IMG/VR virus record: IMGVR_UViG_2778261527_000006
Source of the DNA: a virus
Taxonomy: Duplodnaviria; Heunggongvirae; Uroviricota; Caudoviricetes
Direction: 5' to 3' (one strand)
Length of the DNA: 9,181 bases
Shown: positions 1 to 8,173 of the stretch, in pieces
Position numbering within the stretch: position 1 is the first letter of the stretch
How the letters are laid out: the number at the start of each line of letters is the position of its first letter
Made by a program: the position numbers and the translations under genes
Notes under the pieces: generated by a model
What the model saw: only the letters and a program-made list of their open reading frames with translations
Database searches by the model: none
Told to the model about the DNA's origin: nothing

Positions 1-159
1 TCGACTATTCCATGAAGAAATCGCTTCAGATTTAGTTCGTTTTTCTGGTCCTTGGGCACCACATTTGCATGACACATAGCGCATTTTCCCTCTGATACTG
101 AATGAGTATCCGATGTTAAGCACAGTGGAACCACAGAATGGGCAGCGATAGAGATTCAT
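1..159 (-). CDS. Lar-family restriction alleviation protein, C-terminal end cut by the window edge
   Basis: Minus-strand ORF with ATG at 157-159 (rc), preceded by a strong SD (AAGGTGGA, about 7 nt spacing). Translation MNLYRCPFCGSTVLNIGYSFSIRGKMRYVSCKCGAQGPEKRTKSEAISSWNSR... has the C-P-F-C-G ... C-x-C-G-A ... A-I-x-x-W-N-x-R pattern typical of small Lar/RalR-type zinc-ribbon proteins. No stop codon before position 1, so the 3' end is missing. Confidence 0.65.
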   Translation of the reverse strand, partial: MNLYRCPFCGSTVLNIGYSFSIRGKMRYVSCKCGAQGPEKRTKSEAISSWNSR

Positions 160-257
160 AAATCATCCACCTTAGGCGCAGCTGAGACAGCAACATTCCA
201 GAACTCAGAAAACATATTGTATGCACCAGATAGATTGGAAGTGGCATACCCTCCAAG

Positions 258-491
258 CTAACTTCTAATCTGAACGGCTCTCATCATTTCCGGCGTTAAC
301 TCCTTCGGCACCATAACCCAACCATCCGGAGTTACCGGAGAGTTGCCATCCAGCGCGTTCAACTTGTAAGCCTGGCTTACAGGTTCGGCACTATGAAGCA
401 TGGCAGCGCGGCAGGCGTTCCAGCCTTGAACCTTAGCTATTGCCACAACTGCATCGGTAAAGAACATTCTCGCGGTATCTGGCTCCGGCAT
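258..491 (-). CDS. hypothetical phage early-region protein with repeated VP-x-E-(L/P)-T-P-E-M motif
   Basis: Minus-strand ORF immediately upstream of, and co-oriented with, the Lar-like gene. The C-terminus ...PDGWVMVPKELTPEMMRAVQIRS and an internal VPDEMPEPDTARMF resemble a motif I recall from small lambdoid-prophage proteins; the family name is not certain. The track ORF (258..551) begins at a TTG with no SD; the first in-frame ATG is at 491 with a weak GGA-type SD, so the start is uncertain. Confidence 0.4.
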   Translation of the reverse strand: MPEPDTARMFFTDAVVAIAKVQGWNACRAAMLHSAEPVSQAYKLNALDGNSPVTPDGWVMVPKELTPEMMRAVQIRS

Positions 492-592
492 TTCATCCGG
501 CACCGCTTGCTGCGGTATCAGGAGCCGGTGCAGAATATGCCAGGGCAACAATCTACTACTGGCAGTAACTTTTCTTCACTATGGGGTGATTA

Positions 593-2590
593 ATGGCTAA
601 AGCATGGAAAGATGTTATCGCCTCTCCACAGTATCAGGCGTTAGCACCAGAACAAAAAGCGCAGGCTCAGGAGCAATACTTCAATGAAGTCGTGGCCCCG
701 CAAGCCGGAGAAAATGCAGAGCAGGCTAAGCAAGCTTTCTATGCTGCCTATCCATTGCCATCTGTGCAGCAAGTGGAGACACAGCAACCAGTAGCACAGC
801 AACAACCACAGCAAAGTGGATTTATGTCTGATCTTGGCGAAGCAGTAAAAGAGACTGGCCGCGGACTGGTGCAGGCTGGCGTGAACGTGGCAAACATACC
901 TGCATCAGTTGCAGATGCTGTAACAAGCGCGGCGGCTTGGGCTGGCGGTAAACTCGGAATTGGCGATGGGACATATCACCCTGCGCCACGAGTAACAACG
1001 CAGGGATTAGAGCAGGACTTTGGCCTTCAGCAAGGCGCGCTGACTCCACAAACTACAGAGGGAAGGGTATTTGCTGAGGCATTGCCTTACCTCACTCCTG
1101 CTGGCATTGAGAGAGCGGCAACACAGGCACCAACACTCGCTGGTAGAATCGCTCAGGGTGCAACTCGCCTTCTCGCTGAAAACGCAGTCGGGTCACTTGC
1201 TGCAAATAGTGCGAAAGATGATGCGGAAGCACTCGCTACCGATTTAGGCGTTGGCGTTCTGGCTGGCGGCGCTATTAACGCTGCCGGACGTGGATTAGGC
1301 GCTGCTTATCGTGGCGTTCGTGGTGCTATTGCACCAGAAGCGCAGCAAGCTATCAGATTTGCAGAGCGTGAAGGAGTGCCTCTGCACACCACAGACCTGT
1401 TACAGCCTACTTCCCGCGTCGGAAAAATGGCGCAAACGACAGCAGAAAATATCCCCCTGGCTGGCACAAGCGGAATGAGAGCAACGCAACAGGAAGCGAG
1501 AAGCCAGTTGGTTCAGAGATTTGCTGATAAATTCGGTGAGTATGATCCAGCGGTTGTTATTGACAGCCTTAAAGCGAAAACATCAGGAATTCGTCGCGCT
1601 GCAGGAAATCGACTGGAGCAGGTTCAGAATGCTATGGCGAGAATAAACATTCAGCCTGCAAGAGCAATTCAGCAGATTGATACAGAAATATCTAACCTGC
1701 AGAAGCTTGGTAAGGTTGCTGATAACGAGACTATTTCAAAACTTCAGTCCTATCGTGATGAGCTTGTTCGCAATGCTGGTCCTGATGGTCCGGTAAATCT
1801 GGATTTGAAGCAATTAAGCGATCTGCGCAGCCAGTTCAGAATGGACGTGAAGGGGGAGCGACCAGTGTTACCAAACCGTTCCGATGCTGCCATTCAGCGC
1901 GTTTACAAGGCAATGACCGACGATATCAATGGTGCCATTGGTCAGAATCTTGGCAACGATACTCTCCGTAAATATCAGCAGGCCAATGCCGTCTACGCTG
2001 ACGAAGCGGCGAAACTAAAGAATACCAGGCTGAAGAATGTTCTCATGAAAGGCGACCTGACGCCGGAAGTTGTCAACAACATGCTATTCAGCAAGAACAA
2101 ATCGGAAATTAAGACTCTCTATAACTCAGTTGGTCGTGTTGGCAGGGCGCAAATGCGCAATGGCATCATTGGAAAGGCGATGGAGAAATCAGGTGGTTCC
2201 CCTGACCAGTTCCTTCGGCAGCTTAACATCCTGCAAAACCAGACTGGCATCACATTTAAAGGTCAGGAAGCCGCTTATCTGAAAGGATTGAAAAACTACC
2301 TGCAATCCACGCAGCAGGCTGCAAAAGCGGCAGTAACAACACCCACAGGGCAGCAAACTATCCCGTTCATTATTGGGTATGGGACGGCAATGAACCCGGC
2401 GACAACTGGCGCAGCAGTAAGCTACGGACTTCTTACTCGCGCCTATGAGAGCGAGCCATTCAGAAATGCAATGCTCCGAATGGCAAACACCCCACGCGGA
2501 TCAACAGCGTTCGAGAAAGCCATGCAGCAGGCACAAAAGGCCATTAACGCCCTGACTCAGGGGGCTAAGTCTGATGCGCTGTCAGAATAG
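593..2590 (+). CDS. putative phage DNA transfer / ejection protein (P22 E-protein class, gp16/gp20-like)
   Basis: 665-aa ORF with ATG at 593 and an upstream GGGGTGA SD, about 50% GC. Composition fits an ejection protein: Gln-rich N-terminus (QQVETQQPVAQQQPQQ), a Gly/Ala-rich hydrophobic stretch (LGVGVLAGGAINAAGRGLGAAY), then a long predicted helical region. It sits where the last ejection-protein gene lies in P22-like genomes, just before the immI (mnt) and tailspike genes. The functional call rests on synteny and composition, not a verified alignment. Confidence 0.5.
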   Translation: MAKAWKDVIASPQYQALAPEQKAQAQEQYFNEVVAPQAGENAEQAKQAFYAAYPLPSVQQVETQQPVAQQQPQQSGFMSDLGEAVKETGRGLVQAGVNVANIPASVADAVTSAAAWAGGKLGIGDGTYHPAPRVTTQGLEQDFGLQQGALTPQTTEGRVFAEALPYLTPAGIERAATQAPTLAGRIAQGATRLLAENAVGSLAANSAKDDAEALATDLGVGVLAGGAINAAGRGLGAAYRGVRGAIAPEAQQAIRFAEREGVPLHTTDLLQPTSRVGKMAQTTAENIPLAGTSGMRATQQEARSQLVQRFADKFGEYDPAVVIDSLKAKTSGIRRAAGNRLEQVQNAMARINIQPARAIQQIDTEISNLQKLGKVADNETISKLQSYRDELVRNAGPDGPVNLDLKQLSDLRSQFRMDVKGERPVLPNRSDAAIQRVYKAMTDDINGAIGQNLGNDTLRKYQQANAVYADEAAKLKNTRLKNVLMKGDLTPEVVNNMLFSKNKSEIKTLYNSVGRVGRAQMRNGIIGKAMEKSGGSPDQFLRQLNILQNQTGITFKGQEAAYLKGLKNYLQSTQQAAKAAVTTPTGQQTIPFIIGYGTAMNPATTGAAVSYGLLTRAYESEPFRNAMLRMANTPRGSTAFEKAMQQAQKAINALTQGAKSDALSE

Positions 2591-2679: not shown

Positions 2680-2940
2680 TTATCTGCTGTCTTTTTTATA
2701 TAGCTTCTTGAGCGTATCAAAGACAATTTTCTTAACCATATCAGATTGTTGTTCTGCCATACGCTCTGCATCGTCAATGTAAACTGATGCAGAGCTTTGT
2801 TTAGCCAACGATTCTTCAATCGCTGCAATTATCTCTGAGTTCAGCGATCTGTTATTCATCTTCGCACGCTGCTTAATTTTCGCGTGGAGTTCATGCGGAA
2901 GTCTCAAGTGAAACTGCGCCTCGTCGTATTTGCTGTACAT
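2680..2940 (-). CDS. mnt: Mnt-like ribbon-helix-helix transcriptional repressor
   Basis: Translation MYSKYDEAQFHLRLPHELHAKIKQRAKMNNRSLNSEIIAAIEESLAKQSSASVYIDDAERMAEQQSDMVKKIVFDTLKKLYKKDSR aligns along its length with P22 Mnt as I recall it (N-terminal beta-strand FNFRMP, RSMNSE helix, C-terminal VKKMVFDTLKDLYKK tetramerisation helix). An in-frame upstream ATG at 2973 with an AGGT SD would add 11 residues; homology to the short RHH N-terminal arm favours 2940. Confidence 0.8.
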   Translation of the reverse strand: MYSKYDEAQFHLRLPHELHAKIKQRAKMNNRSLNSEIIAAIEESLAKQSSASVYIDDAERMAEQQSDMVKKIVFDTLKKLYKKDSR

Positions 2941-3061
2941 CCTTGATGCCTCACCAGTTGGGTGGAATGGCATCGTAACCTACTGGATAAATACTCAATA
3001 GTACCATTTCGGTATGCAATCACATCATGGTTGCATCATATCATTCGTCTGGAGCAATGAA
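2941..3061. promoter_or_regulatory. divergent intergenic control region between mnt and the tailspike gene (candidate Mnt operator and promoters, not resolved)
   Basis: 121-bp gap between divergently transcribed mnt and tailspike. Contains an imperfect inverted repeat CACC-N5-GGTG at 2952-2964 and ATGCAA-N-TTGCAT at 3014-3038. No convincing sigma70 -35/-10 pair could be assigned by eye. Confidence 0.25.
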
Positions 3062-5128
3062 ATGTCAGATATCACCGCAAATGTTGTGGTAAGCATGCCT
3101 TCGCAACTCTTCACTATGGCGCGTTCTTTTAAAGCCGTAGCCAATGGAAAAATTTATATCGGTAAAATTGACACGGACCCGGTAAATCCTGAAAACCAGA
3201 TTCCGGTATATCTGGAACGAGAAGATGGTAAACATGTTCAGGTAGAACAACCAATTGTTATTAACTCTGCCGGTTATCCTGTGTATAACGGACAGATCGC
3301 CAAGTTCGTTACAGTGCAAGGCCATTCTATGGCTGTTTATGATGCGTATGGTGCACAGCAATTTTATTTCCCAAATGTGTTGAAGTACGACCCAGACCAA
3401 TTTAAGTATGAGCTTTCATCTTCACTTGGTTCTGGGATGGTTGGCGTCCAGCCAATTGGAACTTTGTATGATCAATCATTGTATGTTACACCGGAACAAT
3501 TCGGCGCTGTTGGTGATGGGGTTAATGATGATACAGAATCTATAGTGTCTGCTATGAAATACTGTTCTTCTGGGAAAATTCGTTGGGTAAGAGGTAAAAA
3601 AGGAAGCACATATCTCGTTTCTCAGGTAGAAATACCTGTTGGCATAAAAAAAATAAGTGATCTTAGCCTGATTGTCACAGCACAGGGTGGTGTCTGCTTG
3701 TTTTCGCAAGGTACTTCCGGTCACACAGACCTTGAAATTAGTGATTGTTCCATTAATGCAAATGGTGTTGCCAGAGGAGGAATTCTTCTTAGCGCAACAA
3801 CTAGGTGCAAAATACTAAGAAACAGAGTATATGGTTTCGGTGTTGATGGAACTGAACGATATGGTATACGTATTGGAACAACAGATATCACATCACTAAA
3901 CTTATACGATACCATAGAAGGAAATACAATTGAGATGCCCATAGATCCTGATAGTGGTGCAGGAACAGTTGGTATTGCTGGTATATATTTAGTAGCACAA
4001 AACAACATAGACACTGAAACTGGAAGTGTAAAATGGAATTCGCAACACAAAACCATTCAGTACATAACTGTGTCAAACAACACCGTTATCAACGGAACTC
4101 ACAACGTGCAAGCTTTCGGGTTATTTAATGCTGAATTTACAGGGAATATACTAATTGGAGGTTCGCATCGTAATATAAATCTTGGAACTGGTTGCGAGCG
4201 TGTAAAAATAGAGGGAAATAGGCTAATCAATGCAGAATCATCAGCAATTATTTTTGGAGAATCTAGATATATACAGATATCAAACAACTATATACAGTCA
4301 GCCTCTACTTCTAGTTACATATCTGATGATGCAGCTATCCAGTTTGCACAAGGTGCATACAGTATAGACATAATAGGCAACATGATACTAGGTGACTGGA
4401 GATACGGAGTACATTGCTTTAACTCGCGATATGTTTCATTAAAAAATAATACAATAACAGCATCTGTAGCTTGTATAGGAATAGAATCATCACAGACGCT
4501 TAAATTACCTGATAATGCAATATACAGTTCCAGAAGGAGTGTTACCAAGATGATTAATGGAAGCACGACTGAGTATTCCATATCTGGAAACGTATATACA
4601 CCTAACGGTGATTCAGCATGTGCTATTTATCTTTGCCAGCTAAATGGTGTTGTTCTTGGTAATATAAATATATATGGAGAAACAATCCATCAGGCTGGTA
4701 ATTTCAGACACATATTATACTTAGTTGAAGATGATAGTTTAATGACAGGAATTTCTGCCATAGATATTTCAGCAAAAAATGCTAATTACTCACAGTACTA
4801 TAGCATTAGGGGAAGGACTCCTTTCTATAAAATAGATAACGTTACCGCTCTTGAGGACCCATCTATTGAATATTTTGCTCCGGGAGGCACATCTAGTGCA
4901 TTTGTCGGGCCAAGCATATACCTTGACAATAAAGTTGTAAGTTACTTTTCTAATGGAATTGATGGGCAAATAATACAAGTAAGAATGTCTATAGGATCAA
5001 AGTTAATTCATAATAACAAGCTTATAAGGTTAAGAGGAGAAACAGATATAGCGTCAATATCAGGCAACACAATTATAACACTAAAAAGACTGAGTGGTAT
5101 TTGGTTTGAAATTTCAAGGAGTATATAA
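3062..5128 (+). CDS. phage tailspike protein: P22 gp9-type N-terminal head-binding domain fused to a pectate-lyase-like right-handed beta-helix receptor-binding/depolymerase domain
   Basis: The N-terminus [97 protein letters not shown]...NVLKYDPDQ matches the P22 tailspike head-binding domain ([56 protein letters not shown]...VLKYDPDQ). Downstream, [25 protein letters not shown] is a pectate-lyase-3-type signature, followed by repeated beta-helix motifs ([73 protein letters not shown]). The track ORF begins at ATG 3014, but the ATG at 3062 has a GGAG SD at 3051-3054 and gives the canonical N-terminus. Confidence 0.9.
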
Positions 5129-5174
5129 GGATTAGCTGGAGGGTTTAATAAAGCATGATAATTATTGCGTGTAA

Positions 5175-5217
5175 TAAATCACAAATTTAAACAATTCGTG
5201 ATTTATTTTCTTTTATC
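5175..5217 (+). terminator. candidate rho-independent terminator downstream of the tailspike gene
   Basis: Inverted repeat TAAATCACAAATT (5175-5187) / AATTCGTGATTTA (5193-5205), 12 of 13 bp paired, 5-nt loop, followed directly by TTTTCTTTTATC (5206-5217). The stem is AT-rich, so stability is modest. Confidence 0.35.
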
Positions 5218-5232
5218 TATGCGAAAATTACA

Positions 5233-5275
5233 AAATAATGGTGAGGTATTTTTCTATAAAGCCTCACCATTATTT
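5233..5275 (-). terminator. candidate terminator hairpin abutting the stop codon of the Wzy-like gene
   Basis: Perfect 13-14 bp inverted repeat AAATAATGGTGAG(G) (5233-5246) / (C)CTCACCATTATTT (5262-5275) with a loop of about 15 nt, ending next to the stop codon at 5276-5278. On the minus strand it is followed by TGTAATTTTCG, a weak T-tract. Confidence 0.3.
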
Positions 5276-6415
5276 TTACCCTGCGCAAAAATTGCGCAAA
5301 AAATCATTAAGATTTTCGCATCTTTTATTTCTTAGCATTTCTACACTCCTTTCATTATCCATAATCCAGTCAACTCTGTATTCCAATAATCTAGGTCTCT
5401 TTTCATCACTGAATGTTTTAACAGTTACAATTGATGAAATTAGAATGACCGTAGAAACTATAGCAATTGAATCGTAAGCGATTACGCTCTTTCTATATGT
5501 TGAAAGTATGTATCCAAACAAAAACGTCAATGGAATAAACATGTAATAGTAAAAGCGTGAAAATGCTGGTATAAAATAAATACCTATATGCAAGCATGCA
5601 AATATGAAAATTATATTCCATATTCTAGTGTATTCATCTTTACTTTTCCTGATTAGGAATCGCGTAATAATGATAAGATCAGCAATAATACCAAACCCAA
5701 AACCTACACTGCTGAGTGATTCTGAATAAAGAGATGCTTTACGCGCAAGCTCTACCCCAACTACAGGTATAGAGTAAACAAACTCAGTATTGCTCAAAAC
5801 AATACCACCAATTAATACCATTAAAGTTGTTATGCAAATACCTTTAATTACAAGCGGTTTTCTCTCTGAATAGTATACATGCCAGAATATCAGCACTATA
5901 ATTGCGGAGTAATGAAAAAGCGAAGCTATTAAAACAGACACTATAAATAGTCTGATTCTTTTGTCTAAAAGAAAATTAATTGAGTGGAAGCATATTACAA
6001 TAGCCACAAATTGACGTATTTGATCAACAACAAGAGACAGACCACCAAGCAAACACATGGCAAGCAATGTAGCAGGAATGTTTATAGGTATTGGTGCTTT
6101 TTTTAATGCAATAAAAGCGATGTAAAATGATAAAAGATAAAATATGAAAATAGCTGATTGAAAATTTATAGACAAATTTGCTAATACATAAAGATATATA
6201 TTGAATAGCAAATCGTAATTTATGGAGAACTCACTTTTAAATCCATCAAATACATAATAATAATTAACCCAATCAATTCCATTTGAATAGACAGCAGTAA
6301 AAATGCAAGAGCAGAATATTACATATGCCATTGCAAATAGTCGGTTAAATCTACATCTGAATGCACATATAAAAACGAAAGCAAGCGAAGTGAAGAAAAA
6401 AAATATCCAAATCAT
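5276..6415 (-). CDS. EpsG/Wzy-like polytopic inner-membrane protein (putative O-antigen polymerase / serotype-conversion protein)
   Basis: About 28-32% GC. The translation is highly hydrophobic with many predicted TM segments, and the N-terminal loop motif YSNGIDWVNYYYVFDGF resembles the G-x-D-(W/Y)-x-x-Y motif of EpsG-family / Wzy-type polymerases. No acyltransferase-3 (R-x-x-x-D-x-x-R-G) signature is seen. The track ORF starts at TTG 6439 with no SD; the first ATG at 6415 has an AGGT SD 6 nt upstream (379 aa from that start). Confidence 0.6.
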   Translation of the reverse strand: MIWIFFFFTSLAFVFICAFRCRFNRLFAMAYVIFCSCIFTAVYSNGIDWVNYYYVFDGFKSEFSINYDLLFNIYLYVLANLSINFQSAIFIFYLLSFYIAFIALKKAPIPINIPATLLAMCLLGGLSLVVDQIRQFVAIVICFHSINFLLDKRIRLFIVSVLIASLFHYSAIIVLIFWHVYYSERKPLVIKGICITTLMVLIGGIVLSNTEFVYSIPVVGVELARKASLYSESLSSVGFGFGIIADLIIITRFLIRKSKDEYTRIWNIIFIFACLHIGIYFIPAFSRFYYYMFIPLTFLFGYILSTYRKSVIAYDSIAIVSTVILISSIVTVKTFSDEKRPRLLEYRVDWIMDNERSVEMLRNKRCENLNDFLRNFCAG

Positions 6416-6439
6416 AAAATTACCTACAAAATTACACAA

Positions 6440-6518
6440 AATGAAGTCAAGTAGACATTTTGAAAAATGCTATTATAATAGCAAGAAAATCAACTAGTAA
6501 CCATAGTGAAAATCTTTA
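6440..6518 (-). promoter_or_regulatory. possible promoter region for the Wzy-like gene
   Basis: Perfect 12-bp palindrome CTATTATAATAG (6470-6481) containing a consensus TATAAT (minus strand, 6472-6477) 35-60 nt upstream of the candidate start codons. The -35 is poor (TTACTA), and TATAAT is frequent by chance in 30% GC DNA. Confidence 0.2.
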
Positions 6519-6722
6519 ATGCCTAGTGAAATTGTACAGTATATAGTTGCAGCAGTTACCATAATGATCGTCTACTGTCCAACGGTTTTGATTTGCATGC
6601 TTGTGGATTGGCTTCTAAGAAGCTATCGTATTGTTTCAAAAGAACAAAAAATAAATGGATTCATTGCTGGAAATGTCCTTTTTGTGTTCATTGCACCGAT
6701 ATTCCTGAACATGAATATGTAA
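6519..6722 (+). CDS. hypothetical small hydrophobic protein (67 aa, two predicted TM helices)
   Basis: ATG-initiated ORF in the gap between the Wzy-like gene and int. MPSEIVQYIVAAVTIMIVYCPTVLICMLVDWLLRSYRIVSKEQKINGFIAGNVLFVFIAPIFLNMNM has two hydrophobic segments. A 68-codon open frame is uncommon in 30% GC DNA, but the SD is weak and no homology is recognised. Confidence 0.25.
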   Translation: MPSEIVQYIVAAVTIMIVYCPTVLICMLVDWLLRSYRIVSKEQKINGFIAGNVLFVFIAPIFLNMNM

Positions 6723-7937
6723 TTATTTGGTTATGTTGACATTTTTGTTGTTTTTGCTGAGTGAATATAGCAATGTTGGTTGCTCCACCTTTTCATCAAC
6801 CCAATCCGCCCACCACTGCATCATTTCTCTGCGCTTATCGAGATACTGAGCATGGTTGTAAATCCCACGCACAGATCCGCCGTTGGCATGTGCCAGTTGC
6901 ACTTCAATAGCATCAGCAGGCCATTCGTGCTCGTTCATAATCGTGCTGAATTCATGCCTGAATCCGTGACCGCTTTCCAGACCCTCATAGCCGATTTGTT
7001 TGATCACAAGCAATACCGCGTTCTCGCAGATTGGCTTCTTCTTATCGTTGCGACCGGCAAAAACAAACTCTGATACTGGTTTGGTGATGGAGCTTAGCGT
7101 AGTGAGAAGTTCAACTACCTGGTCTGACATAGGAACCACATGAATTTTGCGTCCCTTCATCACACTGGCGTCGATGGTGATAATCCTGTTTTCAAAATCG
7201 ACGTTCTTCCATAGCATGGAACGAAGCTCTTTCGTTCTTAGGGCTGTGTAGCGTAAAACTTTGGTCGCAATGAGCGATACGATACTTCCTGAAAATGTTG
7301 CCAGTGCTTTGTTGAATGCCGGGATCTGGTCTGCAGGAAGAAACGGGAAGTTCTTCTTGCGGTATCCCTTCATGGCGTCAGCAAGGTCAGGTGCTGGGTT
7401 ATATTTAGCCCTTCCGGTGACAATAGCGTAACGGAAAACCTCGCCGCATCTTCTGCGGGCTTTGTTGGCTCGCTCCATTGCACCGCGATCTTCGAATCTT
7501 CGGATTACTTCCAGCAGTTGCATCGGCTCAATATCCTGAATCTCAAGACCGCCGATGATGGGTAAAATGTCGTCGTCAAACATTTTGGCAAGTTCGTTTG
7601 CATAGCCTACTGACCAGACTTGCTTCTTGTGCTCGTACCATTCCTTGTAAATCGCACTAAAGGAATTGTTGTTAGACGAAGCCTTTTTCGCCTTTACCGG
7701 ATCGATGCCAACCGAGATGTCTTTCCTCGCAGTCCATGTCTTATCCCTTGCTTCCTGCAAAGTCATAAGCGGATATTTTCCGACAGTCAGGATTTTCTCC
7801 TTACCGTCAATCTTGTAGCGAAGCTGCCATACCTTTTTCCCTGATACAGGGACATAAAGGTACAGGCCATTACCATCGAGTAGGCGGTATGGTTTTTCTT
7901 TCGGCTTTGCTGCTTCAATCTGCTTAACGGTGAGCAT
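6723..7937 (-). CDS. intS: site-specific tyrosine integrase (P4-type, tRNA-associated; IntS-like)
   Basis: The N-terminus MLTVKQIEAAKPKEKPYRLLDGNGLYLYVPVSGKKVWQLRYKIDGKEK matches the DUF4102 arm-binding domain of P4-family integrases. The catalytic region has HGFRHEF (H-x-x-R) and RGIYNHAQY (candidate catalytic Tyr). It lies directly beside the tRNA-Arg 3' end, as in the K-12 yfdC-argW-intS locus. The track start (7973) is a GTG; the ATG at 7937 gives the canonical N-terminus. Confidence 0.9.
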   Translation of the reverse strand: MLTVKQIEAAKPKEKPYRLLDGNGLYLYVPVSGKKVWQLRYKIDGKEKILTVGKYPLMTLQEARDKTWTARKDISVGIDPVKAKKASSNNNSFSAIYKEWYEHKKQVWSVGYANELAKMFDDDILPIIGGLEIQDIEPMQLLEVIRRFEDRGAMERANKARRRCGEVFRYAIVTGRAKYNPAPDLADAMKGYRKKNFPFLPADQIPAFNKALATFSGSIVSLIATKVLRYTALRTKELRSMLWKNVDFENRIITIDASVMKGRKIHVVPMSDQVVELLTTLSSITKPVSEFVFAGRNDKKKPICENAVLLVIKQIGYEGLESGHGFRHEFSTIMNEHEWPADAIEVQLAHANGGSVRGIYNHAQYLDKRREMMQWWADWVDEKVEQPTLLYSLSKNNKNVNITK

Positions 7938-7982
7938 GGGTAAAAATCCGGTGGGTAAAATTATTTTATCCACTTTTTACCC
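7938..7982. repeat. GGGTAAAA(A) repeats at the int 5' end (candidate integrase arm-type binding sites / int promoter region)
   Basis: GGGTAAAAA at 7938-7946, GGGTAAAA at 7953-7960, and the inverted copy TTTTTACCC at 7974-7982, all within 45 bp directly upstream of the int ATG. A consensus TTGACA lies on the minus strand at 7998-8003. Confidence 0.3.
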
Positions 7983-8098: not shown

Positions 8099-8173
8099 TG
8101 GTGTCCCCTGCAGGAATCGAACCTGCAATTAGCCCTTAGGAGGGGCTCGTTATATCCATTTAACTAAGAGGAC
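8099..8173 (-). tRNA. argW: tRNA-Arg (anticodon CCU)
   Basis: The reverse complement reads GTCCTCTTAGTTAAATGGATATAACGAGCCCCTCCTAAGGGCTAATTGCAGGTTCGATTCCTGCAGGGGACACCA: a 7-bp acceptor stem (GTCCTCT/GGGGACA, one G-U pair), anticodon loop CT-CCT-AA, T-arm GGTTCGATTCC, encoded CCA. The 3' end faces the integrase gene. Confidence 0.95.

Follow-up and report, generated by a model that had tools for sequence, protein, structure and literature searches.

The diversity of Escherichia coli O-antigens is usually explained by variation of the galF-gnd locus, together with the decorations added by phage-borne gtr and oac genes. A different form of conversion, in which the phage brings its own polymerase cassette, is known from Salmonella and Pseudomonas phages and is apparently undescribed in E. 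coli. The Salmonella phage epsilon15 encodes a beta-polymerase (gp21) and an inhibitor of the alpha-polymerase (gp22), whereas the Pseudomonas phage D3 combines a Wzy-beta with a 31-aa Iap, a short hydrophobic peptide that inactivates the resident polymerase, has one membrane helix and has been proposed to mimic the TM2 of Wzz (PMC4815439; PMC12004945). More distant in host, the prophages of Acinetobacter baumannii carry Wzy1Ph (also WzyPh1), an enzyme of the EpsG family, which is one of the two families with characterised Wzy enzymes; this polymerase overrides the locus-encoded Wzy, as demonstrated through the linkage change observed by NMR and through knockout (PMC9241936; PMC13228068). A tailspike depolymerase is likewise present in these prophages, in which an inhibitor of the host Wzy has been suspected. 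In the case of E. coli, a 2019 review of all its O-antigens only speculated about a second, phage-type wzy accompanied by an inhibitor, for O118/O151, and our literature searches found no described case of polymerase swapping in this species.

The locus described here lies in a window of 9,181 nucleotides (the whole stretch of DNA that was analysed, IMG/VR record IMGVR_UViG_2778261527_000006), which matches E. coli strain H2 at 100% (NZ_CP028733.1, 1,505,536-1,514,716) and covers the right-hand end of what is left of a P22-like prophage at argW (Table 1). The original prediction had proposed a Wzy/EpsG-like polymerase between the tailspike and the integrase of an argW prophage, with neither Wzx nor glycosyltransferase genes nearby. 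This setting holds: no wzx, glycosyltransferase, gtr or acyltransferase gene is present in the window, and no ORF between tailspike and integrase gave any match to GtrA, GtrB, GtrC or Acyl_transf_3 in the Pfam, NCBIfam and PHROG scans. The polymerase had also been regarded as the single gene of the slot, a view that has to be abandoned, as a conserved gene for a small membrane protein is also part of the module. A low-GC block extends from the 3' half of the tailspike gene to the stop codon of the integrase, and the G+C content of the polymerase gene is 31%, while the genes for the integrase and the ejection protein reach about 47-51%. The hairpin found between the convergent tailspike and polymerase genes is likely, from its sequence, to be a bidirectional terminator, and its absence from the terminator consensus scan is due to its 15-nt loop.

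Table 1. Features of the window around the proposed polymerase gene (positions refer to the first nucleotide of the window).
Feature	Position	Strand	Remarks
gp20-like DNA-transfer protein	593-2590		
Mnt/Arc repressor	2680-2973	-	
Tailspike	3062-5128	+	Head-binding N-terminus of the P22 type, then a beta-helix receptor-binding/depolymerase domain
Hairpin	5237-5271	none	10-bp stem AATGGTGAGG / CCTCACCATT; T-runs on both strands; read from the sequence
EpsG-family polytopic membrane protein, proposed Wzy	5276-6415	-	379 aa
Sigma-70-like promoter	6452-6479	+	TAGACA-16-TATAAT, 11/12 matches; consensus match only
67-aa protein with two membrane helices	6519-6722	+	Divergent from the polymerase gene
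IntS-type tyrosine integrase	6723-7973	-	Pfam Phage_integrase, Phage_int_M, Arm-DNA-bind_3
tRNA-Arg(CCT), argW, attachment site	8099-8173	-	ARAGORN; RefSeq annotation of H2 and A23
yfdC	beyond tRNA-Arg(CCT)		

The resemblance to epsilon15 and D3 on which the original prediction drew stands as a functional analogy, but not as homology. As in epsilon15, the polymerase gene is convergent with, and directly downstream of, the tailspike gene, a two-helix membrane protein of 66-67 aa adjoins the polymerase, and the host retains its own different Wzy. However, the epsilon15 Wzy-beta belongs to the Wzy_C family (PF04932) and the protein found here to EpsG, with no significant BLASTP alignment for either the polymerase or the small protein, whose gene is co-directional in epsilon15 and divergent in the window. 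Moreover, no O-acetylation repressor gene is seen here, and the host sugar is GlcNAc-initiated (O133), as opposed to Gal-initiated (group E) for epsilon15. The logic of D3 is likewise shared, while its protein families and host are different. By family, A. baumannii Wzy1Ph is the nearest experimentally proven relative, although it acts on capsule in another genus and has no partner small protein identified. Finally, the gtrABC and Oac cassettes (CPS-53, Sf6, P22) coincide with this locus in general purpose and in the slot between tailspike and integrase, but they add glucose or acetyl groups to units that are already complete, whereas the cassette described here would change the linkage of the backbone.

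The polymerase ORF (5276-6439, minus strand) encodes 387 aa from a TTG codon or 379 aa from the ATG at 6415, and the shorter version is favoured by the alignment with 12 homologues and by a conserved GTAGG ribosome-binding motif upstream. The RefSeq start (WP_157909700.1, 351 aa, 5276-6331) omits the conserved first N-terminal helix and, judging from this alignment, is probably too short. A polytopic protein of 379-387 aa had been anticipated, and about 11-12 membrane helices are indeed predicted (around 11 hydrophobic segments by hydropathy and an all-helical AlphaFold model). In the profile-HMM search that had been suggested as a check, residues 31-334 matched Pfam EpsG (PF14897, model positions 5-317 of 326) with 96.9 bits and an E-value of 1.7e-27, above the gathering cut-off of 30.1 bits. 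The G-x-D-W-x-x-Y-Y-Y motif pointed out from the beginning is real (N45-G-I-D48-W-V-N-Y52-Y-Y) and nearly invariant among homologues, with G46, D48, W49, N51 and Y52 unchanged across the family alignment. The AlphaFold model, obtained from 13 sequences (pLDDT 81, pTM 0.81), predicts a GT-C glycosyltransferase fold; a profile search of PDB sequences found no solved relative, and Foldseek comparison of the model with the PDB gave only insignificant transporter and GPCR matches. The protein has no match in the NCBIfam and PHROG scans, and, among 50,697 phage genomes, megablast produced no match and neither did tblastn with the EpsG protein.

Other identities considered for this protein were rejected. 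Pfam gives EpsG alone, which excludes gtr proteins, Oac (acyltransferase-3), WaaL-type ligases and transporters, and no Wzy_C (PF04932) match that would indicate a Wzy_C protein or an O-antigen ligase was obtained at E <= 1. None of the refuting outcomes listed beforehand that computation could address was therefore obtained.

The whole family is small, comprising 13 clusters in a collection of 5.8 billion proteins, and PF14897 is detected in all 13 database homologues. The closest chromosomal relatives (40-43% identity over the full length) map to four independent O-antigen clusters of the Enterobacter type, three of which are visible from the dTDP-rhamnose genes to gnd, with the layout galF-rmlBDAC-wzx-GT2-GT4-[EpsG]-gnd where galF is covered. 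The EpsG protein is the sole polymerase candidate in each of these four clusters, and a more divergent member from Hafnia (31% identity) is likewise embedded among wzx and glycosyltransferase genes. The Enterobacter relatives (for example those of E. huaxiensis P0007 and E. cloacae M-7) keep the motifs NGxDWxNYYY, DQIRQF, FHYS and PAFSRF, as well as a C-terminal RC...FC. These chromosomal genes differ from the phage gene in residing inside an O-antigen cluster, with neither an adjacent 67-aa gene nor a tailspike; the gene of the window sits on a prophage about 375 kb away from the O133 cluster of its host. Altogether, membership of the EpsG family, the GT-C fold model and the occurrence of relatives at the wzy position of Wzx/Wzy-type clusters support the reading of the protein as a Wzy.

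The small gene of the module encodes a 67-aa protein with two hydrophobic helices and a basic loop between them, and it adjoins the polymerase gene, in divergent orientation, in each of the four variants of the phage cassette (window type, L003, L018 and L032). The gene is under purifying selection, with pN values of 0.16-0.22 versus pS values of 0.67-0.80 and a dN/dS of about 0.1 for both genes of the pair, and the two promoter hexamers at its 5' side are conserved in 4/4 variants despite a divergence of about 30%. On the other hand, none of the chromosomal clusters with an EpsG homologue contains it. Neither Pfam nor PHROG has a family for this protein, which makes up one cluster at the 50% level in a set of 1.84 billion representatives and has no relatives outside that cluster in the libraries of 5.8 billion and 1.84 billion proteins. 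Because of its size, topology, position and phage-only distribution, it could tentatively be regarded as an inhibitor of the resident polymerase, analogous to the Iap proteins of epsilon15 and D3; it shows no sequence similarity to either epsilon15 Iap (BLASTP) or E. coli WzzB. There is also a considerable, if less than even, chance that the protein is not an inhibitor at all, but an unrelated moron (involved, for example, in superinfection exclusion or membrane stress) or a helper of the phage Wzy. Its lack of similarity to epsilon15 Iap or Wzz would agree with such roles, as would its own promoter-like site and its orientation opposite to the polymerase gene, whereas its strict linkage to this gene in four variants, which represent a minimum of two phage backgrounds and perhaps three, speaks against them. 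Moreover, the role of an obligatory helper is made less likely by the absence of the gene from chromosomal clusters whose EpsG-type Wzy evidently works without it.

The distribution of the cassette offers clues about the substrate of the polymerase. Its DNA is found in only two of 5426 complete E. coli genomes, those of strains A23 (capybara) and H2 (human), both of which carry an O133 O-antigen cluster (rmlBDAC-wzx-GT2-GT4-wzy). The O133 wzy gene itself occurs in just three complete genomes out of the 5426, so that the association, with the cassette in two of these three O133 genomes and in 0/5423 of the others, involves three O133 genomes only. Strains H2 and A23 diverge by about 2% in the flanking core genes and are nevertheless identical over positions 3118-7738 of the window, which indicates horizontal sharing of the element among O133 strains that are themselves divergent. 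The argW slot of TB06052, the third O133 genome, is occupied by gtrA/gtrB (yfdG/yfdH) and two hypothetical genes beside intS (L023 9895-12488), and thus O133 strains bear alternative O-antigen-modifying cargo at the same slot.

The phage-borne gene therefore resides in a host with its own wzy, and the two are unrelated: the O133 Wzy does not resemble the EpsG proteins in sequence and is matched by no Pfam family. The Wzx, GT2 and GT4 proteins of the four Enterobacter-type clusters show, in contrast, 60-72% identity to their E. coli O133 counterparts. The same set of unit-synthesis genes is thus naturally paired with two unrelated polymerases, and the phage carries precisely the type that is absent from its O133 host, which constitutes the strongest argument that the phage enzyme would accept O133 units and link them differently. 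The suggestion that the phage protein re-links host-made units is in this way strengthened, at the level of gene content, by the O133 background of the lysogens and by the orthologous wzx, GT2 and GT4 genes that accompany a different polymerase in the clusters of its relatives.

As a separate observation on the hosts, strain A23 harbours an ABC-transporter mannan cluster of the O8 type downstream of wzzB (manC, manB/rfbK, wzm, wzt, a methyltransferase and a glycosyltransferase; L020 18946-25501) besides the Wzx/Wzy-type O133 cluster at galF-gnd, so this strain has two O-polysaccharide loci.

In our view, the locus is likely to encode a phage-borne O-antigen polymerase of the Wzy type that converts the O-antigen of the lysogen. 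The process would start with the assembly of the O133 unit on Und-PP by WecA and the glycosyltransferases of the host, followed by the flipping of the unit by Wzx. The phage Wzy, an integral inner-membrane protein with a GT-C-like architecture, would then join the Und-PP-linked O133 units at the periplasmic face through a linkage that probably differs from the one made by the unrelated host O133 Wzy, resulting in a converted O-antigen. By analogy alone, the 67-aa protein could silence or displace the resident polymerase, whereas the receptor domain of the tailspike would bind or cleave the unconverted polymer. A lysogen converted in this way would be shielded against related phages, and the phage progeny would be kept from sticking to debris.

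In an alternative scenario, the linkage made by the phage Wzy would be that of the host enzyme, or the phage Wzy would simply substitute for it, as a back-up or replacement that maintains the O-antigen (as phage receptor or as host fitness factor) with no change of serotype. The host wzy of strain H2 (L022 11267-12425) carries, according to its annotation, a frameshift due to a T7-to-T8 change near nucleotide 315, whereas the phage gene of the same strain is intact, and wzy genes outside the main cluster are known in Salmonella, which makes the idea worth considering. The frameshift may be an error of sequencing, or the host gene may have decayed once the phage enzyme had taken over its function. 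However, the host gene is intact in A23, which carries the cassette, and also in TB06052, the phage and host polymerases are unrelated in both sequence and family, and the polymerase moves together with the receptor domain of a tailspike and with a small membrane protein confined to phages, an arrangement seen in converting modules. For these reasons, a role limited to keeping the O-antigen seems unlikely to us, and conversion of the O-antigen by the phage polymerase is preferred.

Both copies of the element in complete genomes are prophage remnants. In strain H2, early-left genes (torI/xis-like, Lar and a truncated ead/Ea22-like gene) adjoin the gp20-like ejection-protein gene (window 1-600; L002 14232-15494), which implies that most of the prophage has been deleted, whereas in strain A23 an IS1 interrupts the element where the tailspike begins. 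The 3' end of the integrase gene is also altered, since a deletion of about 340 bp with respect to fuller prophages (L017 9310-9650, L024 10248-10588) has fused it to the cassette; as a result, the integrase frame gains 19 residues (window 6723-6782) and ends right beside the stop codon of the 67-aa gene. This deletion may have immobilised the element. The same deleted junction is present in two metagenome contigs (L028 and L031).

This state of decay raises the question of whether the cassette is just silent cargo, either unexpressed or non-functional in these strains, a reading also in line with the consensus scan, where no clear promoter candidate was found for the polymerase gene. Such an explanation is distinctly improbable in view of ORFs that are intact and identical in two divergent strains, and of the purifying selection observed across variants, with a dN/dS of about 0.1 (0.11 for the polymerase gene against a homologue of 65% identity). 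Moreover, all that strain A23 has retained of the whole phage are the genes for the tailspike, the polymerase, the small protein and the integrase, and the same cassette is present in the apparently full prophages of two draft genomes (L024 and L025). A cassette that is active and converts the O-antigen is more in keeping with these data.

With regard to the tailspike, its assignment is supported by the Pfam Head_binding family (214.8 bits), by NosD/beta-helix matches and by PHROG 8280 (tail spike, E-value of 1e-184). The annotation of the top PHROG as 'colanic acid degradation activity', together with the fact that EpsG proteins also polymerise capsules and exopolysaccharides, could suggest that polymerase and tailspike are both directed to another Wzx/Wzy-type polymer (colanic acid, ECA or capsule), a reading made very improbable by the location of all close chromosomal relatives between O-unit glycosyltransferase genes and gnd, in clusters with O133-like unit genes, and by the restriction of the cassette to O133 strains among complete genomes, in a species where nearly all strains have the genes for colanic acid and ECA. 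An O133-directed polymerase and tailspike therefore remain the preferred interpretation.

A second E. coli prophage, of the epsilon15-like lineage (L003), carries the same trio of genes in the slot where epsilon15 itself has its tailspike, its beta-polymerase and its 66-aa two-helix Iap. The identities with the window are 62% for the receptor domain (the C-terminal 570 aa of the tailspike), 65% for the polymerase and 69% for the small protein, whereas the N-termini of the two tailspikes are different and lineage-specific (P22 head-binding in the window, epsilon15-type in L003); DNA homology within the tailspike region spans positions 3584-4665. It follows that the receptor domain, the polymerase and the small gene are transferred as one cassette, and, from these comparisons, the receptor domain (from about position 3410) is part of the mobile unit. 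The four variants known (window type, L003, L018 and L032) share about 60-70% mutual identity. The last of them (L032 47-2607), on a short contig, contains a polymerase of 66% identity and the 67-aa gene beside a Peptidase_S24 (LexA/repressor-like) gene and yedD, which suggests a third genomic or phage background.

Among sequenced phages, the best matches to positions 3440-5128 of the window are tailspike-like proteins of the Ackermannviridae with 40% identity (Shigella Ag3, Salmonella SKML-39 and Dickeya Limestone-like phages), and the receptor domain is therefore common to very different phage families.

Putting these elements together, a more ambitious proposal, which we consider possible rather than probable, is that the locus represents an autonomous 'recognise and convert' cassette able to jump from one podovirus lineage to another, unrelated one (P22-like and epsilon15-like), with the 67-aa protein as the founder of a new, sequence-orphan class of inhibitors of resident Wzy enzymes. 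It would then be the first documented seroconversion by polymerase swapping in E. coli, possibly corresponding to an unrecognised O133 subtype, and in strain H2 the phage enzyme could have replaced a decayed host wzy. In any case, what is most original about the locus is its orphan small protein, together with the portability of the three-part cassette. If the cassette is active, in-silico O-typing from wzx and wzy would misreport the true surface structure of its hosts, and a route to serotype change through the backbone linkage would be added for E. coli. The small protein would then be a natural and genetically tractable Wzy inhibitor, of particular interest because the literature offers neither a Wzy structure nor a Wzy inhibitor and because the suppressor of host Wzy in the Acinetobacter prophages is still unidentified. 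Moreover, the transfer of a tailspike receptor domain together with converting genes bears on phage host range and on the design of phage therapy.

A last observation comes from an epsilon15-like viral contig of IMG/VR (L016 3555-4856), which encodes a more distant EpsG protein (31% identity) convergent with a different tailspike. A 48-aa ORF with one predicted helix ends one base 5' of the start codon of this EpsG gene, and the two could possibly constitute a second pair of small peptide and polymerase.
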